A stretch of DNA of 33,816 nucleotides from Candidatus Nitromaritima sp. (GCA_041938985.1 JBGTUV010000002.1:1-33816), one strand, 5' to 3'. Shown: positions 3,788 to 33,816, counted from the stretch's first letter. Translations and numbers: made by a program. The notes: generated by a model not told the origin, from the sequence alone.

Positions 3788-4183
3788 TCACTTTACAAAC
3801 TGTTTGCAATACTCCAATGCTTCTTCTCGAGTACTACAGATCTTGTAAGGTGTTTTAGAATCGTAAATACGCTTAAAGGAGCGTATGGTCAATTTGGACC
3901 CGATTCTATTTGCCACAAATGCTTCTGCTACTCTTATCTTTTCGAGTTTCTTGCATTTGGCAAAATACTTGGCTGCAGCAATGGAATAACTACCTATGGC
4001 ATCCGTAACATCTATTAGAAACGGTGTTGGTTTATTTTCGCAGAGCGCATGTATGGTATCAACGTAGCGTTCCATAGCGGCAAGAGGCATGGTATGACAG
4101 ATATCCCTATTGTGAAATGTGATGAACAGGATATCTTGGTCACGCCAGAACTTTGCTTTCTCAAATACTACAGCTTGATTCAT
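3788..4183 (-). CDS. small conserved hypothetical protein (possibly STAS/SpoIIAA-like fold), cassette 1
   Basis: 131-aa ORF with a clear paralog at 9408-9818 (e.g. TPFLIDVTDA/TPFLIDMTRA, LTIRSFKRIYDSKTPYKICS/LTLRSFKRIYDPLIPYKICS). The fold assignment is a guess from size and alternating pattern only. Confidence 0.7.
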   Translation of the reverse strand: MNQAVVFEKAKFWRDQDILFITFHNRDICHTMPLAAMERYVDTIHALCENKPTPFLIDVTDAIGSYSIAAAKYFAKCKKLEKIRVAEAFVANRIGSKLTIRSFKRIYDSKTPYKICSTREEALEYCKQFVK

Positions 4184-4224: not shown

Positions 4225-4298
4225 AAAAGCGCAAGGCGTGCCAAAAAAATATAAGTTATTCATTACTAGGGTTTTAATTTTGAAAAAAAATATTGCGC

Positions 4299-4366: not shown

Positions 4367-7300
4367 TTAAATGGGGCGTTGTATTTTTAGTTTTTTCATG
4401 CGATCTCGTAGCGTACTGGGTTTCAACCCCAGACGATGTGCGGCTCCCGTTTCACCATCGATCACCCACTGACAATGCTCCAATACTTTTATGATATGAT
4501 CGCGCTGCACTTCATCTAGTGACAATGTTTGCTGCTGAATGGTTCTTTGCTGCGCTCCACCTACTGTTTGTCCAGGGGTCTCAAATTCCACAATTCTCAA
4601 AGTATCAGAATTACAAAGAATTACCGCTCGTTCAACAATGTTCTCCAGTTCACGAACATTACCCGGCCAGTCGTAGGATTTCATTTTACGCATGGTGGTG
4701 TCTGAGATGTACTGAATATTCTTTCGGTAGCTTTTACTGTATTTGTCTACAAAGTGCTCTACTAGAACAGGGATATCCTCCCGACGTTCACGCAAAGCGG
4801 GTACGTGTATTGGAAACACGTTTAACCTAAAGAACAGGTCTTCTCTAAATCGCTTTTTGGCCACCTCTTCTTTCAGATCTTTATTGGTGGCAGCTATTAC
4901 CCTAACATCTACTTTTCGAACTTTAGGGTCGCCAATCATCTCAATTTCTCCTTCTTGCAAAAAACGTAAGAGTTTTGGCTGCATACTCAAAGGCAATTCG
5001 CCAATTTCATCTAAGAACAAACTTCCTCCATCGGCAAGCTCTACTTTACCAATCTTATCGGCAATGGCCCCCGTAAACGAGCCTTTTTTATGTCCGAAGA
5101 GCTCGCTTTCTATCAGTTCTTGTGGTATAGCCGCACAGTTCACTTTAATCAAAGGTTTATTTCGCCTATCGCTCAAGTTGTGGACTGCGCGAGCCAACAG
5201 TTCTTTTCCCGTTCCGGATTCACCTAAAAGTAACACCCCTGCAGGGGTAGGTGCCACCTGCTCCAAATCTGTCAAGACCTGACTGAATGCCGCACTTCCA
5301 TAAACCATCTCCTCAAAATTAAAGACCATATCGAGCTCGTTTCTGAGGTATACGTTCTGGTCCTGCAACTGGTTCTTGAGCTTATTTAATTCCTTAAAGG
5401 CTTCTGACAATTCTTGGTTTACGGCCTGTAACTCTTTTTCTGCTTTTATGCGCTGCTGACTTTGGATGATCAATGACACCAAACTTGCAATGGAGGTCGC
5501 AAACTGCTCCTCTTCGGATTTCCACTGGCGAGCTTCTCCCACATGTTCAAAGCAAATAATCCCGTGGTCCTTCTTTAAACCTTGCACAAAAACATCCATC
5601 ATGGATGTGATACTATTGGGTATTAAATAATCTGTGGCAAAACTGCGTGTGGCTGGATGAGTCTGTGCAGCACTTACGGCTATGGTCTTATTTTGAGACA
5701 GTGAGTGAAAATACTCCGGATGGTCAACTCTTGTGAGTATCATACCTTCTTCATGCTCGTCTTCAGAGCGTTTGTATAGATCTTCACAAACGATCATCGA
5801 AAAGTCATCGTCCAACTTCCATACGCTTACTCGCTCAACTTCCAATATTTCAGCAGCCAAGGAGGTTATGCGTTGCAGAGCTGTCATATAATCACTGCCA
5901 ACTAAACCAGCTAGCTCAAGAATAGCTTGTTTCTTGCGATCGGATTGTTCTGCTAGCAAGGTCTTCTGCTCCATGAGTCGAACCTGATCTGAAATGTCTT
6001 GTATAGTGCAATAATGTGCTATGATATTGCCTTCTTTGTCTCTTATGACAGCACTTTGTGCAGAAATAGGAAACTTGACCCCATCTTTCTTTTGAAACTC
6101 GAAATACATCTGATCATCGGCCTTACCGGCAAGGACCTTATCCAAACAAGCGTTGAAAGCCTCTTTATTATCCTTGGGTAAGAAACCGAATGGCATCTGC
6201 ATTCCGAGTAATTCAGATTCTGTAAAACCAAGCATCTCACAAAAGGCCGGGTTGACATCTATGATCTTAGAATTCAGATCCATTACCATGAGCCCTTCGT
6301 GCAAGGAATTTATCAGTGAACTAGAGAACTCGTTGGCCAATCTTAGTTTATTCTCATACTGATAGCGTTCCGTTATATCTGAAATGGTGCCAATATGCGT
6401 CGTGACCTCACCCCTCTCATTGCGCAGGTGGGTAACAGAGATCCAAACTGGGAAACGCTCCCCATTCTTACGCATAAAGATGAGTTGAAATTGTTCGTCC
6501 TTTCCAGTTTTTAATTGACTAAAGGCTTCTTTGATCTCGTCTATATGTTCGGGAGGCCAATACGAATATGGCGGCTTCATACCTACAATCTCGCTTCGCT
6601 CCAACCCCAACATTTCGCAAAAGGCAAAATTAGTTTCCAAAAACTCACCGGAAACATCGATAATTGCAAGACCCTCTTGCAGCCCTTGAATGACTCGATC
6701 ACTGAATTCTTTTTGTTTTTCTAACAAGTTTTCGGAACGAGAAAGTTTACTGCGATCTCTAACAACACTGACGTTAGAAGAAACATTACCATTAGAATCG
6801 TATAAAACCGAAGTAGCTATGGAGACAGGGAAACGACTACCGTCTTTTCTAATAAAATTGGCGTCAAATGAGGACTGTGCAGAATCTTTGCCTGGCGCCC
6901 TCAGACTAATTAATTCCTCGAAGAACTCGCCCGCCCAATGATAAGGCGGCATTTGCCCCATAATTTCATGACGTTCGATTCCCGTCATCTCCAAATAAGC
7001 AGGATTAACATCGATACATTTTCCCTTGGGGTCTGTAATAACGATCCCATCGCTCATTCCGTGAATAAACTGCCCTTTAAGGTGTTGCTCCTTATTAAAG
7101 AGATCTATTATATCTTCAAGTGATCGCCTTTCTCTTACGGTTATGAGCACGTAGCCACGCGCAATGGCCTCACCTTTGTTCAACTCAGCAACCTGCCGCT
7201 CGCCATTGGCAGTAGTGAAGAATACCAACTTTGGGAAATTCCCAGTTTGTTGCGCCAATGAGCTACTGAATTGTTTGCGGTGTTTTTTATTTCTAAAGGT

Positions 7301-7510
7301 GTCGAGCAGTTTCCATTGCTCCTTAAGCAAGGCAGCAACTTTATGGCCGCTAAGAATCTCAAAAGCTTTGTTTGCAGCTAAGATCGCACCCGTTTTTAAC
7401 TCTAGTACTAGCAGAGCTGACCCAGCAGTATTGAAATACTTCTCTTGCGACTTACTAAGAAAATAAGTCGTAGGAATTTGTTTGGTCTTTTCTTTTTGCC
7501 CCTTTGGCAT
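4367..7510 (-). CDS. sigma-54-dependent transcriptional activator with multi-PAS and GAF sensory region, cassette 1
   Basis: 1047 aa. Contains repeated PAS-like units (e.g. [93 protein letters not shown]) and a GAF-like block. The AAA+ sigma-54 interaction domain shows Walker [24 protein letters not shown] (a GAFTGA-loop variant) and [10 protein letters not shown]. The C-terminus has a Fis-type HTH ([19 protein letters not shown]). Confidence 0.92.
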   Translation of the reverse strand: MPKGQKEKTKQIPTTYFLSKSQEKYFNTAGSALLVLELKTGAILAANKAFEILSGHKVAALLKEQWKLLDTFRNKKHRKQFSSSLAQQTGNFPKLVFFTTANGERQVAELNKGEAIARGYVLITVRERRSLEDIIDLFNKEQHLKGQFIHGMSDGIVITDPKGKCIDVNPAYLEMTGIERHEIMGQMPPYHWAGEFFEELISLRAPGKDSAQSSFDANFIRKDGSRFPVSIATSVLYDSNGNVSSNVSVVRDRSKLSRSENLLEKQKEFSDRVIQGLQEGLAIIDVSGEFLETNFAFCEMLGLERSEIVGMKPPYSYWPPEHIDEIKEAFSQLKTGKDEQFQLIFMRKNGERFPVWISVTHLRNERGEVTTHIGTISDITERYQYENKLRLANEFSSSLINSLHEGLMVMDLNSKIIDVNPAFCEMLGFTESELLGMQMPFGFLPKDNKEAFNACLDKVLAGKADDQMYFEFQKKDGVKFPISAQSAVIRDKEGNIIAHYCTIQDISDQVRLMEQKTLLAEQSDRKKQAILELAGLVGSDYMTALQRITSLAAEILEVERVSVWKLDDDFSMIVCEDLYKRSEDEHEEGMILTRVDHPEYFHSLSQNKTIAVSAAQTHPATRSFATDYLIPNSITSMMDVFVQGLKKDHGIICFEHVGEARQWKSEEEQFATSIASLVSLIIQSQQRIKAEKELQAVNQELSEAFKELNKLKNQLQDQNVYLRNELDMVFNFEEMVYGSAAFSQVLTDLEQVAPTPAGVLLLGESGTGKELLARAVHNLSDRRNKPLIKVNCAAIPQELIESELFGHKKGSFTGAIADKIGKVELADGGSLFLDEIGELPLSMQPKLLRFLQEGEIEMIGDPKVRKVDVRVIAATNKDLKEEVAKKRFREDLFFRLNVFPIHVPALRERREDIPVLVEHFVDKYSKSYRKNIQYISDTTMRKMKSYDWPGNVRELENIVERAVILCNSDTLRIVEFETPGQTVGGAQQRTIQQQTLSLDEVQRDHIIKVLEHCQWVIDGETGAAHRLGLKPSTLRDRMKKLKIQRPI

Positions 7511-9835: not shown

Positions 9836-9851
9836 TGCCATAGCCGTGCCA
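9836..9851 (-). promoter_or_regulatory. candidate sigma-54 -24/-12 promoter for the 9818-7854 operon
   Basis: The minus strand reads TGGCACGGCTATGGCA, against the consensus TGGCACG-N4-TTGCW. GG and GC are at the canonical spacing with one mismatch in the -12 box. It lies ~17 nt upstream of the ATG at 9818. Confidence 0.55.
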
Positions 9852-10000: not shown

Positions 10001-13000
10001 TTATGCCGGGCGTTGTATATCGAGTTTTTTCATGCGATCGCGCAAGGTACTCGGTTTCAATTGGAGTAACTTGGCTGCACCCTGTTCGCCATTGATCTTC
10101 CATTGGCATTGTTCAAGGGCTTTAAGAATATGTGCTCGCTGCGCTTCATCTAAAGACAAGCCTCCGCTGTGCTGGTTCAGGCTGCGTGTTTTATCCAAAT
10201 TGTCTCCTGGAGTCTCGAACTCCGGAATTCGCAAGGTCTCTGAATTCGACAAGATCACAGCACGCTCCACAAGGTTCTCCAGCTCTCTAACATTACCTGG
10301 CCAAGCATACTCCTTGAGCTTACGCATGACTGAATCTGAAATGAATTGAATCTCTTTGTGGTATTTGGCACTGAACCTATCTACAAAGTGCTGTATAAGC
10401 ACCGGAATATCATCGACGCGCTCTCTTAGCGGCGGCACTTGTATTGGGAATACATTGAGCCTAAAGAAAAGATCTTCTCTAAAGCGTTTTTTCTCAACTT
10501 CTTCCTTGAGATCTCTATTTGTGGCAGCTATGACTCGAACATCTACTTTTGTCGTCTTAGGGTCGCCGATCATTTCGAGTTCTCCTTCTTGGAGGAATCG
10601 CAAGAGCTTGGGCTGCATATCTAGTGGCAGCTCCCCTATTTCGTCTAAAAACAGTGTTCCGCCGTCTGCAAGTTGAACCTTACCTAGCTTATCGGCTATG
10701 GCTCCTGTAAACGATCCTTTCTTATGTCCGAAGAGCTCACTTTCAATGAGCTCTCTTGGAATGGCTCCGCAGTTTACCTTAATAAAAGGTTGCTCTCGCC
10801 TATTACTCAAATTGTGCACCGCGCGCGCCAAAAGTTCTTTACCAGTACCACTTTCACCCAATAAAAGCACTGAGGCCGTGGTTGGGGCCACTTGCTCCAA
10901 GTTTGTAAGTACATCGCTAAAACCAGCACTTGCGTAGACCATTTCTTCGAAATTAAAGGTCATGTCTAGCTCCTTTCGCAGATAAACGTTTTGATCTTCC
11001 AGCTGTGTTTTAAGATTATTGAGCTCCTTCACAGTCTGAGACAATTCTTTGTTAACTTCAAGGAGCTTTTTTTCGGCTTTCATGCGCTGTTCACTCTGAA
11101 TGATCAAAGAGACCAAACTTGCTACCGAGGTCGCAAAATGTTCTTCTTCACTACCCCAAATACGCATGGGCCCAACATGTTCAAAAACTATGATGCCATT
11201 ATCTTCATCGTGCCCTTGGATAAACACATCCATCCAAGAAGTAATGCCATTGGGTTCTAAATATACCTCACTGAAACTCTTGGTGAATTTATGCTCCCGA
11301 GCATTGGTCACTGCAATGGTCTTATGATGATTTAAGGAATCAAAATATTCCGGATGGTCTTTTGCTAGAAACACTGTCTGATTTGTGTGCTTTCCGGTTC
11401 GCTTATCGTAAAGGTCTTTGCATTTCATGCTAGACCAATCTTTGTTGAGCACCCAATAACTTACCCTATCCACTCCAAGTACTTCTGCAGTCAGAGAAGT
11501 AATGCGTTTTAAAGCATTTTCGTAGTTGCTCCCAACAAGTCCAGCTAATTCCAAAATTGCCTCTTTTTTTCTGATGGAATTCTCTGTGAGTCTGCGTTGG
11601 CTTTCAATGAGTCTCACCTGATCTGAAATATCTTGAATGGTACAGAAATGAGCAATTACCAATCCTTCTTTATCGCGAATGATCTGATTGTGGACAGAGA
11701 CAGGGAATGTACTTCCGTCTTTTCTTTTGAACTCAGACTCAAAACCAGAAAACCCTCTTCCTTTTAAAACATTTTCTGCACAAGACTTGAATTCTTTAAT
11801 TGCCTGTGGCGTTAAAAATCCGAATGGCAAAACAGCTCCTGCCAGCTCATCGGCATCATAGCCAACCATCCTGCAGAAGGCTGGATTAACATCGATAATA
11901 ACCGATTCCATATCCATTACCAAAAGACCTTCGTGTAGTGAATTGATCAAAGATTCCGAAAACTCATTGGCCAGTTTGAGCTTGTTCTCAAATTCAAAAC
12001 TGTCGGTGATATCAGAAATGGAACCCACATGAGCAGTTATTTCCCCTTTTTCGTCTCTCAAATGAGTGACAGACACCAAGGCCGGAAAACGCTCACCGTT
12101 CTTACGCATAAAGGTAAGACGCGCAGCCTTGTTGGATTTGTCCATGATATTCGTAAAGGAAGTAATGATCTCGTCCATATGCTCTGGTGGCCAATATGGA
12201 TATGGCGGACTAATTCCAATAATTTCTTCACGATCAAAGCCGATCATCTTTAAAAATGCAGGATTAGCATCTAAAAACTTACCAAGCGGGTCAATTACAA
12301 TGAGACCCTCTTGAAGACCATTGATGACTCGAGCACTGAATTCTCTTTCGCTTTCGAGTTGTTTCTGAGACTTAGAAAGAGCAGATCTGTCGCGCACCAC
12401 AGTAACCACTGAGGTTACCTCGCCCTCATCATCCTTTATCGTAGAGATAGAAATAGACACAGGAAACGGTGTTCCATTCTTGTGAAAAAAGGTAGCTTCA
12501 AAAGAAGGTCGATCTTCTTGGGAATTAGTAGTTCTGAGGTCAACCAGTTCTTCAAAGAATTCTGGAGGCCAGTGATAGGGAGGAATAGTTCCGAGTATTT
12601 CATCGCGTTCTATCCCTGTCATTTTAAGGTAAGCCTCGTTGACGTCGACCACCTTGGTCTCCTTATCGGTGATCACCACACCATCTTTTAGGCCGTGAAT
12701 GAATTGCTGATAAAAACGATGTTCTTCTCCAAATAGGTCAATAATGTCTTGGCGAGACAGATCACGACTCACTTTTACAAATACGTAATCCGGATCTTTG
12801 GTCGGAAAGATCTCTAAGCGCACAAATTCTTGCGCTCCATTCTTATACGTGAGCGAAAGAAGCTTATTTAAATAACTGGCAATATTGGAAACGGCATTAG
12901 AGAATTGAACCTGCTGGCACTCATTGAGCGCTTCTAATAAGGTCCACTGTCCCTTTAGCAGTTCATCTTCCGAATAGCCGGTTAAGTTTTCAAAACATGA

Positions 13001-13102
13001 ATTTACGGCTAATATCTCTGCCGATTTTTTAGAGAGGACCAACTTTGGGCCGTCTTTACTGTAGAATTGATCTCTTTGAGCCTTATTAATAAAATAGGGC
13101 AT
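10001..13102 (-). CDS. sigma-54-dependent transcriptional activator with multi-PAS and GAF sensory region, cassette 2
   Basis: 1033 aa, collinear with 4367-7510 over the full length. Shared motifs include [57 protein letters not shown] and the C-terminal [16 protein letters not shown]. Confidence 0.92.
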
Positions 13103-22210: not shown

Positions 22211-22405
22211 TCAATTCGTTTCGATAATAACTGGGTCTAAGCCAATGCAATTTACCCAAAAGTCGATGCAAAAATCATGTCCAGCCATTAGAAACATGTC
22301 AAAAACAGGTTCATCTTGGGCAATGGCTTTCTCAGGGCTAGTAAAAATGGCTACACTTGCAAGTAATCCCATTCCAACAGCTAAGTTTCTCATTTTTCTT
22401 TTCAT
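22211..22405 (-). CDS. small secreted peptide, 2 Cys (P4)
   Basis: 64 aa. Sec-type signal MKRKMRNLAVGMGLLASVAIFTSPEKAIA, then an acidic/hydrophobic ~35-aa tail with C-x6-C (DFCIDFWVNCIG). It leads an operon and shares upstream elements with 31687-31920. Confidence 0.55.
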   Translation of the reverse strand: MKRKMRNLAVGMGLLASVAIFTSPEKAIAQDEPVFDMFLMAGHDFCIDFWVNCIGLDPVIIETN

Positions 22406-22505
22406 AAGTTTGTATTTAAACCCTACCTACTCTCTTTTGGCTTTTCGGTATCCGCCTATAATATCATAAGATAGATGGAAGTTAAGAATAAGTACCTTAT
22501 AAAAG

Positions 22506-22522
22506 TTGCGCTAAAAGTGCAA
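22506..22522 (-). promoter_or_regulatory. shared 17-nt motif TTGCAC-N5-GCGCAA (copy upstream of P4)
   Basis: The minus strand reads TTGCACTTTTAGCGCAA. It lies ~100 nt upstream of the P4 ATG and 14 nt after the signal peptidase stop. Confidence 0.6.
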
Positions 22523-22535
22523 TTGACAATTCATA

Positions 22536-23588
22536 TCAGCGGATAATTTTAACTACTTTTCCTTGAAGAAAATTAAACGGTACTACTCCAAAATTACGAG
22601 AATCAATTGAGCCATCTCGGTTGTCGCCTAAGACGAAAACATAGTCCTGCTTAAATGTATGCAAATTAGTTTCATTGCCAGAAGGAACAGGAGTTTGCCA
22701 ATCCTCAAAATTCTCTAGGATATACTTGTAGAGTGGATAATTCTCCTTATTGATTAGCACAGTCAGACCTTCCCCAGGAACTATAAGAGGTCCATAATTA
22801 TTCGCATCCCAATTTGGGTGTTGACTCCCTCCCAGCAGGCGGGAACCTTTTGTAATTGTGTCCGGACCAATGCTTAGGTTCTTATTTGCCTCCTCGTTCA
22901 CAAATACCCGATATTCTGAATTTGATAAATTTCTTATTGACCTCTTTCCCAGAGTGTTGGTGACAAGATAGTTTTTGCAGTATTGCTCTTTATCGGGAAG
23001 TAGGCTGCCATTTATTGAAACTTGCCCATTTGCTATTAGAAGGGTGTCTGTGGGTAAACCAACGATTCTTTTTACATAATACTTATCGATTTGGTCAATA
23101 GCCTTAAAAACGACAATATCCTCTCTTTGATAATCTTTAAAGGGATTCAATGAAGTAAAGGGTTGGAAGTTTATCGTGTCTACATGAGATTTAAATAAAT
23201 TACCAAAAACAGGGATCTCTTTCCAACTTCTGGGTATACGAGAACCGTAGGCTACCTTGTTGGTAAGAACATATTCTCCTTTAGAAATAGTTCTTTCCAT
23301 GGAGGCTGTCGGCACGTAGTAGTAGTCAAAAAATAAAGTACGTATTAACACAGCAAATAGTACGGGTGTCGCAATGTAAAACAGAAGCGATATTAATTTT
23401 AAAACAATGGATGGAAGCCGAGGTCTTAGAATAGAATACAGATAGCCCGTAGTAACAAAATCGAATACAATCAACAAAAAGATAAACACCAATACGAGCC
23501 GCGACCAGACTAAAAATACAAGGCTAACTACCACGAGCAAAACGAAAATGATCTTTCTGCCTGGGTTTATATTTGATGCTTCTGGCAA
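22536..23588 (-). CDS. lepB: signal peptidase I (S26 family) with extended multi-TM N-terminus
   Basis: 350 aa. Catalytic Ser context PTASMERTI, Lys context YVKRIVGLPTD, and box E GDNRDGSIDSRNFG. There is no in-frame ATG upstream of the catalytic Ser, so a TTG start at 23588 is inferred. About 95 aa of hydrophobic N-terminal extension. Confidence 0.85.
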   Translation of the reverse strand: MPEASNINPGRKIIFVLLVVVSLVFLVWSRLVLVFIFLLIVFDFVTTGYLYSILRPRLPSIVLKLISLLFYIATPVLFAVLIRTLFFDYYYVPTASMERTISKGEYVLTNKVAYGSRIPRSWKEIPVFGNLFKSHVDTINFQPFTSLNPFKDYQREDIVVFKAIDQIDKYYVKRIVGLPTDTLLIANGQVSINGSLLPDKEQYCKNYLVTNTLGKRSIRNLSNSEYRVFVNEEANKNLSIGPDTITKGSRLLGGSQHPNWDANNYGPLIVPGEGLTVLINKENYPLYKYILENFEDWQTPVPSGNETNLHTFKQDYVFVLGDNRDGSIDSRNFGVVPFNFLQGKVVKIIR

Positions 23589-23633
23589 GCTGAAAAATAT
23601 TATTTATTAAATGAACTTATACCTTTTTTTGGC

Positions 23634-24041
23634 TCAACAGATCGTACCTCTCATAATTAACAAAAGGACCACCTTTGACTTTTCAAAATAGACATTGGCT
23701 TTTTGCTCAAAAAAGCCAGTGATTTCATTATTGTACTGTAAGGTAATGAAAGTTCTCTGCCCCGGTTTGATCGGGCTAGAATCCCAGTCGATAACTGTAC
23801 AATCACAGTCAGCATCAATAGATTCTATTCGAATTGGATTAGTTCCATCGTTTGTGATCTCGAAGGTAGCTTTAGATTCACCGCTCTGAGCAACTCTACC
23901 AATATCAATTATATTTTCCTTCAAGGTTGCCTTTACTTCAACAGGTGCATCTTCCTTTTTTAACCATATATTATATGCCTTAATACCCGAAAGGGACAAA
24001 AGAATTACAAGCGCTACCGTCCATATAATCTTTTCTTTCAT
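23634..24041 (-). CDS. DUF1573-like protein
   Basis: 135 aa with an N-terminal TM/signal anchor. Typical DUF1573 pattern: IDIGRV..G....TFEITNDGTNPIRIESIDADCDCT..DW...IKPGQ...ITLQY. Confidence 0.75.
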   Translation of the reverse strand: MKEKIIWTVALVILLSLSGIKAYNIWLKKEDAPVEVKATLKENIIDIGRVAQSGESKATFEITNDGTNPIRIESIDADCDCTVIDWDSSPIKPGQRTFITLQYNNEITGFFEQKANVYFEKSKVVLLLIMRGTIC

Positions 24042-24050
24042 TGGGTTGGA

Positions 24051-25229
24051 TCAATTGAAGTTATAAAAAAACAGTAGGTCGCTGTTCTCGTAATTCAAAG
24101 AGTCTAAGGCTGGTAACAAGTCGGGGTTTATATTCTGCAATACACCAGTAAATTCATCACTGAGTTCTTTGTAGATTTCAAAGCGCTCAAATTGTAAACC
24201 GCTGATGTATTCGCTGGTACTACTTTTACCCACAGGTATTTCCAAAAATCGCAGTGTGAGGTCGTCGGCCTTATTTTGAGGAATATAGGTTTTATCGGCA
24301 TCCTTGAAATAATAAGCCAGATTATACATACTCTCGTTTATAAAAGAGAATGCTATCATATTCGAATCCACATAGTACTTATTGGTTAAATATGCCACAT
24401 CTCTGGCATTGGTTTTTGCGTCAAAACCAGGAAGATCGAACTTTTGTTCTTCTGGCCAGGTTTTTGGCCCAAAATTAAAGCGGTATACGGGTGTGAAATT
24501 GAGTTCATTATCCAGAGAAAGAATAACTGAAGAAGACTTGTAAGTGAAATACACCTTATCTGCCGATTTATTCATGCCTCCAGACAATCCAAAACTTTTG
24601 TAATCATCATAGTCATCAGGATATTTCCCGAAATAGCCAGTAGGAGTTCCAGTTTTTGTGTCTACTATTTTTATAGCGTATTGACCAGGTTCTATATAGC
24701 CGATGGAACAGGCCAGTACGTTGGGCGCTAAAACCGAGAGTGATTCTGGGTAGAATCCTTTAAAATCAACCTTTCGCACAAAATCGTTTTTTGAATTGTA
24801 AATCGTCAAACGAATTTGTGCATCTAGAATGATGATCTCATCATTCTTCTTATCAATATCGAAATCAAAGATAGATTCATATTCCTTTGGGCCACCACCT
24901 CGGATGCCTACTTTATTTAGAAACTTACCACTCTGGTCAAATACGAGGATATTCGATTTTTTCTTATCAAGAACAAAAAATTTATTCTTGTGTTCAATTA
25001 CTTTGTCTATGCTCGCCAAGGCATCTATTTCCGCTATTTCCATTAATGGAATGAATCTACTCTCACCAAATAGCGAAGCTAGGCGTACTTCTAAGTTCTT
25101 TTCGGCCTGGGTAATGTCAATTAATGAGGCTTGTTGATAATCTATGTGATCCTCTTTTTCAACACAACTTACCGAGAACAATAGCATAAAACAAATAAGA
25201 ATTTGAGGCAGCATTCTTTTCATAACCAT
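24051..25229 (-). CDS. six-bladed beta-propeller-type lipoprotein (BF3164-like)
   Basis: 392 aa with lipobox LFSVSC. Motifs typical of the Bacteroidota TolB-like propeller lipoprotein family (IPLMEI..., FFVLDKKKSNILVFDQSGKFLNKVGIRGGGPKEY). Confidence 0.7.
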   Translation of the reverse strand: MVMKRMLPQILICFMLLFSVSCVEKEDHIDYQQASLIDITQAEKNLEVRLASLFGESRFIPLMEIAEIDALASIDKVIEHKNKFFVLDKKKSNILVFDQSGKFLNKVGIRGGGPKEYESIFDFDIDKKNDEIIILDAQIRLTIYNSKNDFVRKVDFKGFYPESLSVLAPNVLACSIGYIEPGQYAIKIVDTKTGTPTGYFGKYPDDYDDYKSFGLSGGMNKSADKVYFTYKSSSVILSLDNELNFTPVYRFNFGPKTWPEEQKFDLPGFDAKTNARDVAYLTNKYYVDSNMIAFSFINESMYNLAYYFKDADKTYIPQNKADDLTLRFLEIPVGKSSTSEYISGLQFERFEIYKELSDEFTGVLQNINPDLLPALDSLNYENSDLLFFYNFN

Positions 25230-25336
25230 TTACGAATTCCGTGAAACATTAAATGTAATGAGATTAAATACAATAAATAAAGTAGCGCAGTCCATAAAGG
25301 GCCGACACTACTTAGCTATTCAGGTTTTAGTTTTTA

Positions 25337-25561
25337 CTACTGATTCGTTCCATCAGGGCAAGGGTTTGGAGCACAATTACCTCCGCCTTGTACACATAGA
25401 GTTCCGATAGATGCATAGAAACCTTCGTTATTGAAACAAGGAATTTCCATAATCTTCTTCACAGGTCCTATTACACTAGCATCCGATTGAAAATAGCCGT
25501 AAAAACTCAACGAAAATGCCGACACCGCTGCTACGACAGTTAATAATTTTAGTTTTTTCAT
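25337..25561 (-). CDS. small secreted 4-Cys peptide (P2)
   Basis: 74 aa. Signal MKKLKLLTVVAAVSAFSLSF.... The mature part has C-x13-C-x6-C-x4-C and ends CVQGGGNCAPNPCPDGTNQ. Paralog of P1. Confidence 0.7.
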   Translation of the reverse strand: MKKLKLLTVVAAVSAFSLSFYGYFQSDASVIGPVKKIMEIPCFNNEGFYASIGTLCVQGGGNCAPNPCPDGTNQ

Positions 25562-25578
25562 GAATATTAGTTTTAGGA

Positions 25579-25800
25579 TTAATTATTGTTTTCGTCGCCG
25601 CATGGATTTGGAACACAATAACCTTCGCCTTGGATACATTCGGCTCCTGATCCAGTTAATCTTCCAGCTGCATCTCTGCAGTCAATTTGATTAATTTTTT
25701 TTGCCTCTGTAAACGATGCTTCTGCCGAGGTGGTATTAACCAGACTCAAACATGTAAAGGCCACTCCTGCAGCTAGGGTGAATAATTTTAGTTTTCTCAT
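25579..25800 (-). CDS. small secreted 4-Cys peptide (P1)
   Basis: 73 aa. Signal MRKLKLFTLAAGVAFTCLSLVNTTSA. The mature part has identical spacing C-x13-C-x6-C-x4-C and ends CIQGEGYCVPNPCGDENNN. Confidence 0.7.
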   Translation of the reverse strand: MRKLKLFTLAAGVAFTCLSLVNTTSAEASFTEAKKINQIDCRDAAGRLTGSGAECIQGEGYCVPNPCGDENNN

Positions 25801-25864
25801 GATCTCGTGATTACGGAATTAATCTTTTTGTTTTTCAAGAATATTGAAAGAAACGCGATAAATT

Positions 25865-25881
25865 TTGCGCATATAGTGCAA
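25865..25881 (-). promoter_or_regulatory. shared 17-nt motif TTGCAC-N5-GCGCAA (copy upstream of P1)
   Basis: The minus strand reads TTGCACTATATGCGCAA, ~64 nt upstream of the P1 ATG. Confidence 0.6.
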
Positions 25882-25985
25882 ATATGTTTTTTGGAACGAA
25901 ATTTCTCGGCTGATATCTTTTGATCGGAATTTTAAAAAGAACAACTGTTCTGTGTGAGAATACCTCAACGGAAATTTTAGAGCAA

Positions 25986-26660
25986 CTAAATAATACCCAT
26001 AGATTTAGCCTTTAAGATAAGGGCTCGGTTGCTTTGATCTAAAACCCCAAGCTTTTCTTTAAGCCGCTTTTTACGATACTCTATAGCTCGTTTAGATAGC
26101 AGCAAAGACGCTCTCATTTCTTTATTCGTTGAGCCTTGGTTTAACTCGTTGAGCATTTTTAGGTCGGTTTTATCCATACCTAGTTCCTTTAAGGGATTTT
26201 TATTGAGATAGGCTGTTGTACTTTGGCAATAATAATTGCCGCCAGTAACCACGGCCGCTATAGCACGATCTATCTCCCATGCTTTGATACTGCTCTTTAC
26301 TAAGCAACCCTTGGGATTGAGCTCTGCAAAAATACGGTGCAGGTGCCACCAGGAATAATTTGCTGTAGCCACAATAAGCGGCGTTTCACTGTATTGCTTA
26401 AGTAGCAGGTTTCCCACATCGATACCGTTGAATAAATTGTATTGTGAACTGGCGGGAATTCGAAGATCCAAAATCACCAGATCAAATGGGGTTACGCTTT
26501 TGGATATATAGAAATAAGCTTTCTCACAATTATTGGCTTCATAAACACTAAGAACCTTTTGAGCTTGCTGGACGTAACTCTCTAGTTTAGATACGTAAAC
26601 ATTACGCACAAGAGGTTCGTCCTCTACCAATAGTACTCTGAAAGGCTTGTACATAGACAA
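25986..26660 (-). CDS. LuxR/NarL-family response regulator (orphan)
   Basis: 224 aa. Receiver (RVLLVEDEP, DLVILDLRIP) plus a C-terminal GerE-type HTH (LNELNQGSTNKEMRASLLLSKRAIEYRKKRLKEKLGV). No adjacent histidine kinase. Confidence 0.88.
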   Translation of the reverse strand: MSMYKPFRVLLVEDEPLVRNVYVSKLESYVQQAQKVLSVYEANNCEKAYFYISKSVTPFDLVILDLRIPASSQYNLFNGIDVGNLLLKQYSETPLIVATANYSWWHLHRIFAELNPKGCLVKSSIKAWEIDRAIAAVVTGGNYYCQSTTAYLNKNPLKELGMDKTDLKMLNELNQGSTNKEMRASLLLSKRAIEYRKKRLKEKLGVLDQSNRALILKAKSMGII

Positions 26661-26775
26661 TTTGCATTTAGAACAATGCTGTTCCTAAACAACTAGTTGT
26701 GCAATCAGTTATTTACAACTGACCTCAATTATATAAATCGGGGAGAATCACGAAGTTATCAGAATTTCTGCAAAC

Positions 26776-29700
26776 TCAAAATGCATCATCAAATTTTCTA
26801 GCTCTTCTTAAGCTAAATAGGGGCAGATAAATTAGTATTCCTACAAAAGAAAAAAGCAGACCGCCTATAGTCCCCGCTCCTAGGGCAAACCAAAAAACTT
26901 CATTCTGCCCGTCAGCCACAAAGGGTATAAAACCGAGAATGGTAGAGATAATGGTAAGTGAAATTGGGAATATCTTCTGCCTGAAGGCTTTTATATAAGC
27001 TGAGAGTCCATCCATACCGGTCTTTCGCAAAAAGTTGAAATCATTTATAATAAATATAGATGCATTGACAGTGAGTCCACTAAGCAAAACAAAACTGGCC
27101 AAACCGCCTTGATCAAAATTATAATCAAACCAGTAAAAGGTCAAAAACACCCCAATAAAAGAAATGGGAATCACGCTTAAAATTATAAATGGCTGCGTAA
27201 AGCTTTCGAAAAGTGTTGCGCAAAGCAGGTATATTATGGCAATAACCAAAAGAAGCAGCCAAGTATATTGCGAGGTTTCCTCTGTTTTGAAAAAACTTAG
27301 ACTCCTCTGGCTACGCTCAAAGGTAAAACCAATGGGTAATGTAGGATTAATACTGTCTAGGGTCTTGCTCAAAAATCGGCTTCCGAATTTTGCAGCACCA
27401 GTATATTGAAATTTTATTTTTCTCAGATATTCCTGATTCTCTTTATCGATATTCTCTTGCTCTTTTACCTTTACCACCGTTCCTACATTGGCGAAGCGTT
27501 TTGGGAAATCAAGACTGTCCATTGGGTTGTTCTTAATATTCCAAAGGTCAAAGTCATAAGCCCTTGTAGATTCAAAACGCAAGGGATAGTTTTGCCCTGC
27601 CAATGTTAAATTAAGATCTGTGTTCTTTTGCAAGCTAACATCTTGTAGTTGCCGCATAAAACGCTGTGGCGAACTGCCTTGCAATGCCAGGGCCTGTTTG
27701 TCTAAGCTAAACTGATATTCATAACCGGACTTTCTTGAAAAGTCACTATTGTCAGTGATTTGGGCTTCCTGTATACGGGGATGTGCCTCTAGTGCTTCCT
27801 TTAATTGCAGAGCTAATTCACTTAATTTTTCATAATTGTAGCCTCTAGCCTGTACCGAATAATTATTGATAGCCCCAACAGCATTACTGTTGTTAAAGCC
27901 TTGTCCAACACCGTAAATACTCCATTCTAGGCCGCCAAAATCTAAGGCTTTTCTAATTAATCTGGCCTTTAGTTGATTAGGAAATGCTGTGTTTACAAAA
28001 TCCTCTTTAAAGGTTATTTCCATACGGGCGTAATCTCCACTATATACATTGGTCACATACCTATCCACTTCGACCATTGGACTCAAATAATTCTCCAAAC
28101 CAAGAAAAACCTCATTCATTTGATGCACTGTGGCTCCTTTTTCCATGCTGCCTATAACATAAAGTTTTGTCTCTTCGTTACGGCTGTAAAAGGCATTCTC
28201 ATAAACGAAGTACGAAAAGAGTCTGAAACTACCCCCTAGATATTTGTCAACAGAAGGCCGTATATGCTCTAAATACCACTCATTACCCAGTGTATTGTTA
28301 TACGCTTTTTGGTACCAGGTTTGATTGCTCTCTAATTGTTTTGGAAGCATAAAGAAAGGCACACCAAAGATCAGGATGAGCAAGATGATAGCCACTTTCT
28401 TATACCCGAGTAAGAACCGTAGTAAATTTGCATATTTTGGATAGAACCAGACCGAGAATCTCTCAATCGCTACATTTTTTTGCTTTGTCTTGTATGCGAT
28501 CCGCTTTAGAATCGCGGGCACCATATAAAATGCAATTACCAAGGAGACGCCAAGGTTTATACTTATAACTTTAGCAAAGTCTATCAAATTTAGTTTGTAC
28601 TCATCATCCAGAAAGTTGATTACGCTCAAAGCACCCATTGTAGTTAAGGTTGAGGCCAATATGGGAATAATGATTTTTTTGTTTCCCTGCATTCTGAGGT
28701 GATCTGTCATTACGATAATATTGTCAATGATAATGCCTAAAGAAATTGTTATTCCCGCCAGAGAATACAACTGAATCTCCACCCTGAATAAATAATAGAA
28801 TACAAAAGCAATACAAATATTTGCGACCAGGCAGATAACCACCGTAAAGAGATATCGCAAAGACAAGCTCACCAAACCTATGAACAATAGTAGGATTATG
28901 AGGGTGTAAATACTGCGCTTATAGATCTTACTTAGTTCTTCCTGTAGGTATGTGGTACTGTCGTAATCTTTTACGATTGTATAGTCTGATGGCAGTGTTT
29001 TCTGAATCTCATCCAACAGTAGGACAACCTCTTTTGCAAGGGCGATAGTGTTTGCGTCTTTGGTCGCGTTCAAACCAATAGTGATGGCATTTTTACCATT
29101 GACACGGTAATAGCTTCTGGCTTCTTGTTCCTGCTTGCGTATCTGAGATATCTCATCGAGGTAAACTATCTTTCCTCCAACCTCAGTTAAGGGAATATGC
29201 CATTGTAATTGCTGCGGCCCAGGTTTAACCACCACGTTGAATTCCAGCATACTTTGATGCACCTTTCCTATCGAAACTCGTTCGAACAGGCGGTCTACTG
29301 CAAAGACAAGCTGCTGCTTCCCTATATTTAAGGCCCTTAATTTATCATTGTTAAAACTAATAAGGAACTCTAAAGGATTGGCACCATTAACGTTCACTTG
29401 ATCAATGCCACTCAAAGAACCGATCTGGGGAACAATACGCGCACTTACTGTCTCTTGTATCTCCAAACGAGAACGCGGGGCATTAACACTATAAGATAAA
29501 AAAACACCTTGTTGATCATCATCCGGGCGGTTAACACTGATCACAGGATAACTACAGTTAACCGGAAAGCTTTTATACAATTGCCGTATCACAGTGGCTA
29601 CTTCGAAACGAGCTATGTCTATATCGGCATATTTATCAAAACTGATCTGTACATATCCTCTAGATTTCGAAGACCTTGAACTTATCTTTTCTATATTCCG

Positions 29701-29904
29701 AAGGGTACTAAAACCACCTTCCAAGGTAGCTGTGATCTGCTGTTCGACAGATTTAGAAGATGCCCCAGGCCAACTGTAATCAACACGTATAGAAGGAGGT
29801 GTTTTACTTGGGTTTAAGCGCAATGACAAACGCGAAGCCAAACCGAGACCTATTATGGTCAAGACCATAATAACAACTAATATTTTAAAGGAAGAAAACT
29901 TCAA
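26776..29904 (-). CDS. RND efflux transporter permease subunit (AcrB superfamily), no adjacent adaptor or outer membrane factor
   Basis: 1042 aa. Two periplasmic loop/TM cluster halves. TM4-like motif GIIIDNIIVMTDHL. TTG start inferred, as there is no in-frame ATG near the N-terminus. Confidence 0.88.
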   Translation of the reverse strand: MKFSSFKILVVIMVLTIIGLGLASRLSLRLNPSKTPPSIRVDYSWPGASSKSVEQQITATLEGGFSTLRNIEKISSRSSKSRGYVQISFDKYADIDIARFEVATVIRQLYKSFPVNCSYPVISVNRPDDDQQGVFLSYSVNAPRSRLEIQETVSARIVPQIGSLSGIDQVNVNGANPLEFLISFNNDKLRALNIGKQQLVFAVDRLFERVSIGKVHQSMLEFNVVVKPGPQQLQWHIPLTEVGGKIVYLDEISQIRKQEQEARSYYRVNGKNAITIGLNATKDANTIALAKEVVLLLDEIQKTLPSDYTIVKDYDSTTYLQEELSKIYKRSIYTLIILLLFIGLVSLSLRYLFTVVICLVANICIAFVFYYLFRVEIQLYSLAGITISLGIIIDNIIVMTDHLRMQGNKKIIIPILASTLTTMGALSVINFLDDEYKLNLIDFAKVISINLGVSLVIAFYMVPAILKRIAYKTKQKNVAIERFSVWFYPKYANLLRFLLGYKKVAIILLILIFGVPFFMLPKQLESNQTWYQKAYNNTLGNEWYLEHIRPSVDKYLGGSFRLFSYFVYENAFYSRNEETKLYVIGSMEKGATVHQMNEVFLGLENYLSPMVEVDRYVTNVYSGDYARMEITFKEDFVNTAFPNQLKARLIRKALDFGGLEWSIYGVGQGFNNSNAVGAINNYSVQARGYNYEKLSELALQLKEALEAHPRIQEAQITDNSDFSRKSGYEYQFSLDKQALALQGSSPQRFMRQLQDVSLQKNTDLNLTLAGQNYPLRFESTRAYDFDLWNIKNNPMDSLDFPKRFANVGTVVKVKEQENIDKENQEYLRKIKFQYTGAAKFGSRFLSKTLDSINPTLPIGFTFERSQRSLSFFKTEETSQYTWLLLLVIAIIYLLCATLFESFTQPFIILSVIPISFIGVFLTFYWFDYNFDQGGLASFVLLSGLTVNASIFIINDFNFLRKTGMDGLSAYIKAFRQKIFPISLTIISTILGFIPFVADGQNEVFWFALGAGTIGGLLFSFVGILIYLPLFSLRRARKFDDAF

Positions 29905-30016
29905 GTTGGTTAAGAATTACCATTGTAGGGAGAGGCTTAAATTAAACAAAATGGTGGTTATTTGCCTTAACAACTACGAAATATAAAGAATATCAATTAA
30001 GCAGGATGTTCTAAAA

Positions 30017-30481
30017 TTATAGTGCTCGTTTGTCTAAATACATTTTTGCTTCTTCAATTTTAAAGTCGCTTATGTTCAGATGATAAATGCATTTACCATC
30101 TTTCATATCAACAATCATTGGTTTGGAAAAACCTGTTTCATATTGTGATATCACAAACTTATCATCAACTAAAATGTTATCATACAAATCATACAAATTT
30201 TGAATTTGTAATACCCTTTCCGTATCAAAAGTTTCACCAACTAAGATTAGCTGTACATTGTATTTTGTACTACTTAACAAACCTATATTTAACTTTATGC
30301 AGTTATCACAGCCGTTGATTGGAAGCAAAAAATAAATATTCTCTCCCTCTAAATTGTCAACTTGAAGTTCTTGTGTTAAGTAAGCAGTAAAATCTTCACA
30401 GTAAGCATAAGCACCTTCATTTTTACAAGAAACCAATATCTGGTTAAAAATTAATATGAGTAAAAATGTTCTCGCTCTCAT
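30017..30481 (-). CDS. CxxC-motif lipoprotein (thioredoxin-like?), paralog B
   Basis: 154 aa with lipobox ILVSC. CDNC motif in IYFLLPINGCDNCIKL. It aligns with 20546-21031 and overlaps the upstream gene by 38 nt. Confidence 0.65.
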   Translation of the reverse strand: MRARTFLLILIFNQILVSCKNEGAYAYCEDFTAYLTQELQVDNLEGENIYFLLPINGCDNCIKLNIGLLSSTKYNVQLILVGETFDTERVLQIQNLYDLYDNILVDDKFVISQYETGFSKPMIVDMKDGKCIYHLNISDFKIEEAKMYLDKRAL

Positions 30482-31610
30482 CTTCGATATTTTTAGAGTT
30501 TATCAATATACCAGAAGGTGTTGGTGTTACGGCAAAAAAGGTAAATGCTGATCCATCGAAAGCCATTTCGCCAATTTTAATCATGTTCTCATCAAAAGCG
30601 ATAATTGAGAAACTCCTGTTAAAAGTTGGGTTATTTAATCTATTGGTTAACGGATTCTTTAAGGGTTGTTCATGTACAACCACTCTGTAAAATCTATTCG
30701 ATTCCTCCTCGTACATAAGCCGATTATACGACCCATTGGTTGTTATAAAGCTGATATACTTTTGGGCATCTCGCTTTCTTGGTAATTTTTCAAAAGTGTT
30801 TAAAAAATTACTCTTGCCGTCAAAAACCCCTACTAAACTGTCATTATTTGCCTGATACTTATAAATGTTGTGATCGTATTTCATAGACAAAAAATAGATC
30901 CCTTTATCAAAAAAGGGAATGTAGCTTAAATTGTAATTATTGGGTCTTAAAAAATCTTGATTCGCGTATTGGTCTGGCCATTCCCCGAATGATTCTAAAA
31001 AATTCTCGCTCTCCAGATTAAATTTTCTTGCAAAAGCCTTTTTGTAAAATTCCTTATCAGAATCAAAATTGTAAGGTGGAAATGTTCTAAAATGAATATT
31101 CTTGTTTGTAAGATCGAAATGAAATGAATATGAATCAACAGTTGTAATTTCGAAAAAGTCATCAGTTTGTCCACTTTCATATACATCATTGATATTCCAT
31201 ATCTTCTTAATAACTCCCTTGCTATTTATTAAGCAGAGTTTGGCATTTTTATTCGAGAAAAGGAAAATAGAATCCAGATTCACAGCTAAAAAATCACCAA
31301 ATTCCAATTTGCGCTTTAGGAATTGGTCCGTATTGTAAAAATCTAGAATGGTGTCAATTTTCTTTGCTGTGAGATTGACAAGTTCCAACTTCTGTTGCGA
31401 GGTATTAAGCGTAATAAAATACAGGGAGTCCTTTTGACGCAGCACCTTCTTAGATTTCCCCGTGCCTAAATAATTCCAATCTTTTATTGAAAAGGTATCT
31501 GTACTTAATTTTTCAAGCTTTTGATTCTCCTTATAATCTATTCCAACTTCTTTAGAGTTTCGGGAACAAGAAAAAAGGATAATTACCAGTGAAATAAACC
31601 AAATCTTCAT
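30444..31610 (-). CDS. DUF4221-like beta-propeller-type lipoprotein
   Basis: 388 aa with lipobox ILFSC. C-terminal block FSIIAFDENMIKIGEMAF. Same length class as 21006-22151 and 32116-33282. Confidence 0.7.
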   Translation of the reverse strand: MKIWFISLVIILFSCSRNSKEVGIDYKENQKLEKLSTDTFSIKDWNYLGTGKSKKVLRQKDSLYFITLNTSQQKLELVNLTAKKIDTILDFYNTDQFLKRKLEFGDFLAVNLDSIFLFSNKNAKLCLINSKGVIKKIWNINDVYESGQTDDFFEITTVDSYSFHFDLTNKNIHFRTFPPYNFDSDKEFYKKAFARKFNLESENFLESFGEWPDQYANQDFLRPNNYNLSYIPFFDKGIYFLSMKYDHNIYKYQANNDSLVGVFDGKSNFLNTFEKLPRKRDAQKYISFITTNGSYNRLMYEEESNRFYRVVVHEQPLKNPLTNRLNNPTFNRSFSIIAFDENMIKIGEMAFDGSAFTFFAVTPTPSGILINSKNIEDESENIFTHINF

Positions 31611-31617
31611 ATAGTAA

Positions 31618-31647
31618 ATTAAAAAAGGAAGAATACTCTTCCTTTTA
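31618..31647 (-). terminator. hairpin plus T-tract directly after small peptide gene
   Basis: Stem AGGAAGA/TCTTCCT (31626-31632 / 31637-31643) with a 4-nt loop, extendable by A/T pairs. The minus strand continues TTTTTTAATTT. It ends ~10 nt before the next ATG (31610). Confidence 0.5.
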
Positions 31648-31686
31648 CTTGTAATTAAATTCTTTTAGTCAATGCATTAAAGAATG

Positions 31687-31920
31687 TTATTGGTTTGTAC
31701 GAAACTGATAACATATCCAAGTAGTGATATCACAAAGATCACCCACACCTCCACACATATATCTATACCCCGAAAAGCACTCTTCAGTTTCTTGAATAAC
31801 TTCAGTATTACCTCTCAAACTACGCGAAGAAGTATCTTTTGCGTTGATACTATCCAGATTTAGTATTGACGGTGCAAACAAAAAGGCGAATACGATTGCG
31901 AATAATACATTTTTTTTCAT
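31687..31920 (-). CDS. small secreted 4-Cys peptide (P3)
   Basis: 77 aa. Signal MKKNVLFAIVFAFLFAPSILNLDSINA. The mature part has C-x7-C-x6-C-x6-C (ECFSGYRYMCGGVGDLCDITTWICY). It leads an operon. Confidence 0.6.
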   Translation of the reverse strand: MKKNVLFAIVFAFLFAPSILNLDSINAKDTSSRSLRGNTEVIQETEECFSGYRYMCGGVGDLCDITTWICYQFRTNQ

Positions 31921-32010
31921 AATTATGATTTAAGCACCTACTCTATCCAAGGCTTTTCGGTTTACGCCTACAATTAAACCTTGAATGTAAGTATGGTTGA
32001 ATAATTAATA

Positions 32011-32027
32011 TTGCACTTTTAGTGCAA
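32011..32027. promoter_or_regulatory. shared 17-nt motif, perfect palindrome TTGCACTTTTAGTGCAA, in divergent intergenic region
   Basis: Perfect 6-5-6 inverted repeat, ~90 nt from the P3 ATG (31920) and ~88 nt from the ATG of the divergent gene (32116). Confidence 0.6.
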
Positions 32028-32115
32028 TTTTAATATGCAAGTGAGTTGTACCTTTAACATATAAAATTGGTTACTGAGATGTTCAACCCACTTTTCGTTT
32101 TTTTATCTACTTCAT

Positions 32116-33454: not shown

Positions 33455-33560
33455 GACGGGATTCATTTTTGCTTCGCAAAAATGGTCCGCAGGGGTGGTC
33501 CTGCAATAAAGTGGACCCTTACCTCCTGCTTGCAGCAGGAGAAGTCTTTTTTTGTTTCCT
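33455..33560 (+). repeat. structured tandem repeat unit 1 (candidate small RNA with its own terminator)
   Basis: 106 nt. Hairpin CATTTTTGC-TTC-GCAAAAATG. Conserved core GGGGTGGTCCTGCAATAAAGTGGACCC. Terminator CTCCTGC-TTGCA-GCAGGAG followed by AAGTCTTTTTTTGTTT. Confidence 0.6.
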
Positions 33561-33602
33561 ACGCCTCAAAAGCATCACCATAATTAATAAGTAGACCTAA
33601 TG

Positions 33603-33710
33603 GACGGGATTGTTTTTTCACTTCGTGAAAAAACGTTTACAGGGGTGGTCCTGCAATAAAGTGAACCCTTACCTCTTGCTTGCAGCAGGAGAAGTCTTTT
33701 TTTGTTTCCT
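33603..33710 (+). repeat. structured tandem repeat unit 2
   Basis: 108 nt. The first hairpin is rewritten as GTTTTTTCAC-TTC-GTGAAAAAAC, with compensatory changes relative to unit 1. Same core and terminator (one G-U wobble). Confidence 0.6.
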
Positions 33711-33739
33711 GCTTTTAAAAAGTACTAGCTAAATTTAGA

Positions 33740-33816
33740 GACGGGATTCATTTTTGCTTCACAAAAATGGTCCGCAGGGGTGGTCCTGCAATAAAGTGGA
33801 CCCTTACCTCCTGCTT
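33740..33816 (+). repeat. structured tandem repeat unit 3 (truncated by window end)
   Basis: Near-identical to unit 1 up to the 5' arm of the terminator, where the window ends. Confidence 0.55.

Follow-up and report, generated by a model that had tools for sequence, protein, structure and literature searches.

A two-fold symmetric palindrome upstream of three small-peptide operons, with a neighbouring ComA-like response regulator as its candidate binder

The palindrome and the closest described operators

Regulators of the NarL/FixJ family commonly act on palindromic DNA sites: the NarL 7-2-7 sites, the lux box and other operators of the family are palindromes for dimers of helix-turn-helix (HTH) proteins, placed beside or overlapping the −35 element of activator-dependent promoters. 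The palindrome described here, TTGCAC-N5-GYGCAA (TTGCACNNNNNGYGCAA), lies upstream of three operons led by small peptides (P4, the pair P1/P2, and P3) in a stretch of 33,816 nucleotides (nt) deposited as Candidatus Nitromaritima sp. (GCA_041938985.1, JBGTUV010000002.1:1-33816), which is referred to as the window and which also encodes a response regulator next to one of the copies. The known operators of the family differ from this palindrome in half-site sequence and in spacing, and no NarL/FixJ-family member with a TTGCAC-N5-GTGCAA site was found in the literature. The closest parallel is offered by ComA of Bacillus subtilis, a dimeric response regulator with a tetrahelical HTH which activates secreted peptide and lipopeptide operons; the system of the window, known here from sequence alone, would be analogous to it.

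The canonical ComA site is the inverted repeat TTGCGG-N4-CCGCAA (PMC4797271). Both elements are inverted repeats of two hexamers with the outer letters TTGC and GCAA, but in the window the half-site is TTGCAC instead of TTGCGG, the spacer has 5 nt instead of 4, no accompanying direct-repeat element was seen, the phylum is Bacteroidota and the sigma-A promoter is of the −33/−7 type. Moreover, the ComA inverted repeat has been assigned to class I (PMC4797271), whereas the position proposed here would be class II. By analogy, the palindrome may work like a ComA box without being one, since half-site and spacer both differ.

Three copies are present in the window, and pattern matching together with the start-codon distances bears out the places that a preliminary description had given them, 100, 64 and 90 nt before P4, P1 and P3:

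22506..22522, minus strand: copy of the P4 operon (site 2), TTGCAC TTTTA GCGCAA, 13 nt past the stop codon of an S26 peptidase gene and 100 nt before the P4 ATG
25865..25881, minus strand: copy of the P1/P2 operon (site 1), TTGCAC TATAT GCGCAA, 104 nt past the stop codon of the regulator gene and 64 nt before the P1 ATG
32011..32027, matching on both strands: copy in a divergent intergenic region (site 3), TTGCAC TAAAA GTGCAA, with the P3 ATG at 90 nt and the ATG of a DUF4221 gene at 88 nt

A search of both strands of the 33.8-kb window for the consensus TTGCACNNNNNGYGCAA returned three matches where 0.01 would be expected, a number reached by none of 100 dinucleotide shuffles. The motif had been reported as missing from the other intergenic regions inspected by eye, and a scan of the window allowing up to two mismatches to the perfect palindrome indeed added no further copy. 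The half-sites TTGCAC and GTGCAA form an inverted repeat whose centres are 11 base pairs (bp) apart, that is, one helical turn. Site 3 is matched on both strands because its half-sites are self-complementary; its arms TTGCACT and AGTGCAA are fully complementary about a 3-nt centre and, at 90 and 88 nt from the two start codons, it is the perfect palindrome nearly midway between P3 and the DUF4221 gene that had been announced, so placed that it may act towards both genes. Against a background of 153 Bacteroidota loci (~1.35 Mb), even the looser pattern TTGCRC-N5-GYGCAA is confined to copies and orthologues of this locus; the palindrome was not found in 120 loci carrying the DUF805b RNA leader (~0.95 Mb), nor in unrelated or paralogous loci. 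We are highly confident that it constitutes a genuine conserved cis-element.

Conservation beside one clade of response regulators

Relatives of the locus were recovered with the propeller, the regulator and the resistance-nodulation-division (RND) permease of the window as anchors; word-indexed homologue searches gave six matches for the propeller of 388 amino acids (aa) and two for the regulator, and the permease proved to be the productive anchor. In five further lineages of marine Flavobacteriaceae the same palindrome stands beside a regulator of the same clade, 0-16 nt past its stop codon save in L008 (L numbers designate loci):

L130/L147: site TTGCACGAAAGGTGCAA, 0 nt past the regulator stop codon
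L154: site TTGCACTCAAAGTGCAA, 5 nt past the stop codon
L152: site TTGCACATATTGTGCAA, 10 nt past the stop codon
L149 (Dokdonia ponticola): site TTGCGCAAAAAGTGCAA, 16 nt past the stop codon
L008: site TTGCACAATATGTGCAA, with an insertion sequence (IS) between regulator and palindrome

The IS element of L008 (HTH_Tnp_1 and rve transposase, 2367-3505) parts an otherwise adjacent regulator/palindrome pair. The regulators of the five lineages share ~31-51% identity with that of the window; the DNA flanking the palindromes is unalignable across lineages, and the hexamers are invariant save at one position. In the window it is the downstream half that carries this degenerate base (GCGCAA), in Dokdonia the upstream one (TTGCGC), and the P4 site of the TARA contigs L004-L006 reads TTGCAC TTATA GTGCAA, with perfect half-site symmetry restored. 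As the degenerate base occurs in either half-site, the constraint is two-fold symmetric, without polarity or orientation; judged from these sites, such a constraint is the imprint of a dimeric DNA-binding protein and not of a promoter.

The candidate for this protein is the regulator encoded next to site 1:

25986..26660, minus strand: response regulator of the NarL/FixJ (LuxR) type, with a receiver domain and a GerE-type HTH

Its Pfam scores are 33.2 bits for Response_reg, above the cut-off, and 22.5 bits for GerE (cut-off 23.5), and NCBIfam gave generic NarL-type matches only. By eye, the receiver keeps the acidic pocket (E13 D14), the phospho-acceptor aspartate (ILD65L), the threonine (VAT99) and the lysine (LVK122). 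The best solved relative of the protein is the DNA-binding C-domain of Bacillus subtilis ComA (2krf/3ulq, E 3e-4), other matches in the Protein Data Bank being EvgA, VraR and DevR; its recognition helix is LSKRAIEYRKK, the start of which, LSKRAIEY, aligns with LSKRSIEY of ComA. On these similarities, the regulator is an analogue of ComA within the same superfamily and not its orthologue. The helix LS[KR]R[AT][IV]EYRKK is common to all regulators adjacent to the motif, which is present in the six lineages with an EYRKK helix (6/6) and not in about 14 regulator genes with other helices. In an exhaustive HMMER search the EYRKK helix occurred in 5 of the best 150 cluster representatives, all five of them among the closest relatives. 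A lone TTGCAC half-site lies at 26694-26699 (minus strand), ~35 nt upstream of the regulator start, in the 115 nt that separate the regulator gene from the RND gene; the regulator may control its own gene or share a transcript with the P3 operon. A TPR-HisKA_3 kinase is encoded upstream of such regulators in one related locus.

Paralogous regulators with the helix LSKSG[IV]EKR[KI]R are accompanied by a different element, (GTAAGC)-N5-GCTTAC, at the equivalent place, a pairing seen in L008b, L131, L132, L134, L136, L140 and L142; TTGCAC was not found at these loci or at L007. The two systems share the 6-N5-6 geometry, the place after the regulator gene and ~75-130 nt before genes for Cys-rich or GG-leader peptides, and the regulator family (27-37% identity), but they differ in the half-site, in the recognition helix (LSKSGIEKRKR), in the degenerate left half and in a frequent third half-site of the GTAAGC type. 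The peptide operons of Winogradskyella L007 have the GTAAGC-type motif though the 21 kb fetched hold no regulator gene, and L008, L149 and L152 hold both kinds of regulator. Elements of this type were located in L007 (97-113 and 9364-9380), L008 (14842-14858), L131 (9036-9052), L132 (6685-6701), L134 (6699-6715), L136 (6767-6783), L140 (6626-6642), L142 (9702-9718), L146 (~1997-2015) and L153 (~4290); the right half is invariant, the left is often degenerate, variants GTAAGG/CCTTAC occur, and the additional GTAAG half-site, 11 bp on, is common. In L140 an rpoN (sigma-54) gene at 1988-3433 (minus strand) lies ~1.8 kb from a tandem regulator pair and a four-peptide operon, a proximity that looks coincidental, the operator there being of the GCTTAC type.

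One of the two readings offered at first, in which a dimeric regulator (the adjacent LuxR-type protein being the candidate) uses the palindrome as its operator, finds support in the linkage in five further lineages, the degeneracy in either half, the helix-linked switch of motif and the likeness to ComA. From this evidence we infer that the neighbouring ComA-like regulator is the likely binder of the palindrome.

Promoter geometry, proposed mechanism and rival explanations

A second regular feature is found downstream of the palindrome, where boxes resembling the −7 element of Bacteroidetes sigma-A promoters begin at a fixed distance:

22477..22484, minus strand: −7-like box TAACTTCC (TAnnTT), beginning 22 nt past the P4 copy; predicted position
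25836..25843, minus strand: −7-like box TATTCTTG (TAnnnTTG, one base off the pattern), beginning 22 nt past the P1 copy
31982..31989, minus strand: −7-like box TACATTCA, beginning 22 nt past the P3 copy
32049..32056, plus strand: −7-like box TACCTTTA, beginning 22 nt off the other side of the P3 copy, towards the divergent DUF4221 gene

TAnnTT was present at an offset of 21-22 nt past the palindrome in 6 of 7 independent sites, which none of 20,000 shuffles reached, and an eighth site looked at afterwards, that of L154, has TACATTTA at offset 22, bringing the total to 7/8. In Flavobacterium psychrophilum the sigma-A box TAnnTTTG occupies −12 to −5 (PMC9723704). With this placement and the TAnnTT offset, the palindrome would reach from about −50 to −34 and be centred at −41/−42. 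A −33 TTG and a perfect TAnnTTTG were looked for near the sites and neither was found. The palindrome may thus be placed like the site of a class II activator-dependent promoter, near −41.5, where it would replace the −35/−33 element. At the GTAAGC-type sites there is no fixed distance to a TAnnTT box, the offsets scattering from 20 to 39, and the class II geometry is therefore not extended to them.

In the mechanism proposed, a dimer of the regulator encoded at 25986-26660, probably phosphorylated, would bind the two-fold symmetric 17-bp operator, centred at about −41/−42 in a sigma-A promoter of the Bacteroidetes kind, with a −7-like box but without the −33 TTG. The bound regulator would replace the missing −33 contact, leading to class II activation, and transcripts would begin just upstream of the DUF805b leader (none is present at P1) and carry the genes of Sec-exported small Cys-rich peptides along with those for propellers, thiol-oxidoreductase-like proteins, signal peptidase and RND export. 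Positive autoregulation would also be possible, because the regulator gene follows the P3 operon. Promoter position and sign of regulation are what we infer from this arrangement: the whole scheme, in which the regulator-bound symmetric operator activates the three peptide operons as a class II site, seems moderately probable, and for activation from about −41 as such the balance is even.

Several observations weigh against this scheme. On the protein side, the GerE match of the regulator falls marginally under the Pfam cut-off, the ComA match is weak (E 3e-4), and no cognate histidine kinase was found in the window, none being adjacent to the regulator. The regulator clades are phylogenetically nested, so that the joint change of helix and motif counts as roughly a single event in evolution. 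As regards the promoter, the −7-like boxes match TAnnTTTG poorly, and the distance from the palindrome to the DUF805b leader is not constant (38-52 nt). In addition, a control on the far flank of the palindrome found TAnnTT(T) at offset 21-22 in 4 of 8 sites, which weakens the case for the promoter placement; three of these far-side boxes lie within the last codons, at the 3' end, of the upstream gene. Examples of far-side boxes are 22544-22551 and 32049-32056 in the window and those of L147 and L149. TAnnTT on both flanks could be due to chance, to an antisense promoter or to a promoter that is symmetric or works in both directions.

The other reading given at the outset was that of a variant sigma-54 −24/−12 promoter, with TTGCAC standing for TGGCAC and GYGCA for TTGCA, which would be driven by the two PAS-GAF-AAA-HTH_8 activators encoded in the window. 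The resemblance is real, the consensus being matched at 8-9 of 11 positions: the layout of 6-N5-5/6 and the letters T.GCAC and.GCA are shared with TGGCAC-N5-TTGCW, and one bona fide-looking promoter of the window (TGGCACGCCTTGCGCT) also has GCGC in its −12 region. It had been noted from the beginning that the near-invariant GG is missing, and this objection holds, as the GG at −25/−24 is found in none of nine distinct site sequences, all of which have TTGCAC or TTGCGC and never TGGCAC. The would-be −24 half is TTGCGC in L149, conservation is symmetric and has no fixed orientation to the gene, a sigma-A −7-like box lies at a fixed distance past the motif, the functionally equivalent GTAAGC-N5-GCTTAC is not sigma-54-like, and homologues of the activators were not found by tblastn in 18 related loci. 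Furthermore, each activator of the window already has a canonical GG/GC promoter with upstream palindromes:

9836..9851, minus strand: canonical sigma-54 promoter TGGCACGGCTATGGCA, after the activator gene 10001-13102 and before a DUF7793/PAS-HisKA/receiver module, with two GTAACGGAATACCGTTAC-type palindromes ~90-150 nt upstream
4228..4243, minus strand: canonical sigma-54 promoter TGGCACGCCTTGCGCT, after the activator gene 4367-7510 and 45 nt before the DUF7793 gene 3788-4183, with the palindromes CCACGGTATTCCGTGG and CCACGGATAACCGTGG, of the CCACGG-N4-CCGTGG type, upstream

The presence of these promoters indicates that the organism uses ordinary GG/GC sigma-54 promoters and that both activators already have targets. 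They belong to two paralogous modules (13102-7583 and 7510-2222, minus strand), each consisting of an activator with three PAS domains, GAF, AAA+ and HTH_8, followed by DUF7793, PAS-HisKA and receiver genes; the upstream palindromes differ slightly between the modules (AACGG-N4-CCGTT versus CCACGG-N4-CCGTGG). The half-sites TGCAC/GTGCA of NtrC-type enhancers (upstream activating sequences) contain the same pentamer as the motif, which has a shorter spacing and no −24/−12 promoter 80-150 nt downstream; the putative enhancer palindromes of the window, CCACGG-N4-CCGTGG and AACGG-N4-CCGTT, are unlike it. Without GG, symmetric, unoriented and, in related loci, not linked to the activators, the motif is very unlikely to be a sigma-54 promoter variant, and that reading was not borne out; a protein operator rather than a sigma-54 promoter is, on this evidence, a strongly favoured description of the palindrome.

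If the palindrome is a protein operator, the sign of regulation and the identity of the protein may still be other than proposed. The same regulator could bind as a repressor that occludes the −33 region, the operons being derepressed upon its release or dephosphorylation; NarL-family proteins can repress, and a site at about −50 to −34 overlaps the would-be −33 element. No TTG/TTTG −33 element is present, however, at the expected distance from the −7-like boxes, an absence that is the usual hallmark of activator-dependent promoters, and activation is what ComA and the majority of NarL-type regulators bring about from such positions (PMC4797271), so that repression appears unlikely, if less so than the alternatives that follow. 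A second dimeric factor encoded elsewhere might own the palindrome, the regulator being merely a neighbour: linkage is not binding, and the nearest upstream genes at P4 and P3 encode the S26 peptidase and DUF4221, not the regulator. We consider this improbable, as the motif adjoins this regulator clade in six lineages whereas another motif stands beside paralogues with another helix, no other DNA-binding protein is common to these loci, and the helix is similar to the one of ComA, in whose box TTGC/GCAA recurs. That the inverted repeat works as RNA instead, either ending transcription of the upstream gene as a hairpin or marking a processing site, is suggested by the position of several copies shortly past a stop codon and by the folding of perfect copies to −9 to −10 kcal/mol (z ~−4). 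Two of the three window copies, however, are within the range of shuffles (−3.1 and −4.4 kcal/mol; z −0.01 and −0.75), there is no U-tract, one copy sits between divergent genes, and across lineages the arms keep their sequence with no compensatory change, as is typical where a protein, and not RNA pairing, sets the constraint; a role as RNA is highly improbable. Lastly, the palindrome could be the place where mobile cassettes of peptide operons recombine or meet: the sites do head modular, shuffled peptide operons, and an IS adjoins one copy in L008, but a linked recombinase was found in no locus and the sites keep a fixed position with respect to −7-like box, leader and start codon, so that this explanation is extremely improbable.

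Operon content, RNA leaders and meaning

The genes that matter here are all on the minus strand, and the operons proposed to be under the palindrome begin with the following peptides:

22211..22405, minus strand: P4, a 64-aa peptide with a signal peptide and two Cys, first gene of its operon
25579-25800, minus strand: P1, a Cys-rich peptide of the P1/P2 pair (73-74 aa)
25337-25561, minus strand: P2, a Cys-rich peptide of the same pair (73-74 aa), P1 and P2 together spanning 25337..25800
31687..31920, minus strand: P3, a 77-aa Cys-rich peptide

In the P3 operon, site 3 is followed by a DUF805b leader, P3, the 388-aa propeller-like protein, a 154-aa CxxC protein, the atypical RND permease and the response regulator; the gene divergent from P3 is the DUF4221 gene (PF13970). 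The order in the P1 operon is site 1, P1, P2, a DUF5128 propeller, DUF1573 and the S26 signal peptidase, and that in the P4 operon is site 2, a DUF805b leader, P4, a 381-aa propeller-like protein, a CxxC protein, HlyD, DUF4221, AcrB and OEP. An NCBIfam search found no functional family name for the peptides or the propellers. Marine metagenome contigs from TARA, JGI and Logan contain the window with hardly any change, and among its named relatives Winogradskyella and Dokdonia, both of the Flavobacteriaceae, come closest. No tRNA genes were found in the window; at 33455-33816, reaching its end, are three direct repeats of ~77-108 nt, 69-99% identical and spaced 150 and 135 nt, for which no tRNA or Rfam match was obtained.

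Between palindrome and peptide gene, two of the three operons have a DUF805b RNA leader (Rfam RF02914), the P1 operon being without one:

22424..22458, minus strand: DUF805b leader between the palindrome and P4, 42.7 bits (gathering score 35.6)
31935..31970, minus strand: DUF805b leader between the palindrome and P3, 40.6 bits (gathering score 35.6)

Leaders above the gathering threshold are also present in L008 (3719-3754 and 14765-14800). In the 120 other Bacteroidota loci with this RNA, its end lies 17-30 nt ahead of start codons that belong to highly diverse genes, and 47 of 117 open reading frames that follow have 130 aa or fewer, many of them being GG-leader or Cys-rich peptides; the DUF805b motif gives the impression of an element of general use, a 5' leader or one acting in translation, not restricted to DUF805 genes. 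The idea that the palindrome travels with this RNA was rejected, the RNA being widespread before unrelated genes with varied upstream sequence. Nothing useful was found in the literature on DUF805b or on DUF4221/DUF5128 peptide systems. A GGGTAACAAAA box is common to L011, L045, L058, L075, L076, L078, L089 and L118, loci of Chitinophagaceae, Saprospiraceae and Flavobacteriaceae, ~45-60 nt upstream of DUF805b, and may be a −35 element of the extracytoplasmic function (ECF) type.

A broader and more speculative picture, which we regard as doubtful at present, is that marine Flavobacteriaceae possess a circuit for signalling or bacteriocins that is ComA-like, centred on peptides and not yet described for Bacteroidota. 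A small family of NarL-type regulators would in this case have diverged into orthogonal pairs, EYRKK with TTGCAC-N5-GTGCAA and EKRKR with GTAAGC-N5-GCTTAC, each switching on its own Sec- or GG-exported Cys-rich peptides, possibly with peptide feedback and possibly from symmetric bidirectional promoters.

Operators of the NarL/LuxR family are well known and the mechanism proposed is no surprise, this putative regulator/operator pair being an added member of the family; a tempting but wrong sigma-54 annotation is removed at the same time. What the palindrome offers is a testable regulatory handle on uncharacterised clusters that recur in marine Flavobacteriaceae and combine Cys-rich secreted peptides, DUF4221/DUF5128 propellers, thiol-oxidoreductase-like proteins, an S26 peptidase and atypical RND pumps. 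Since the cultured Dokdonia ponticola (L149) carries an orthologous system, the putative regulon is open to experiment, and the two diverged regulator/operator specificities would constitute a small natural example of how recognition by NarL-type proteins is re-tuned.

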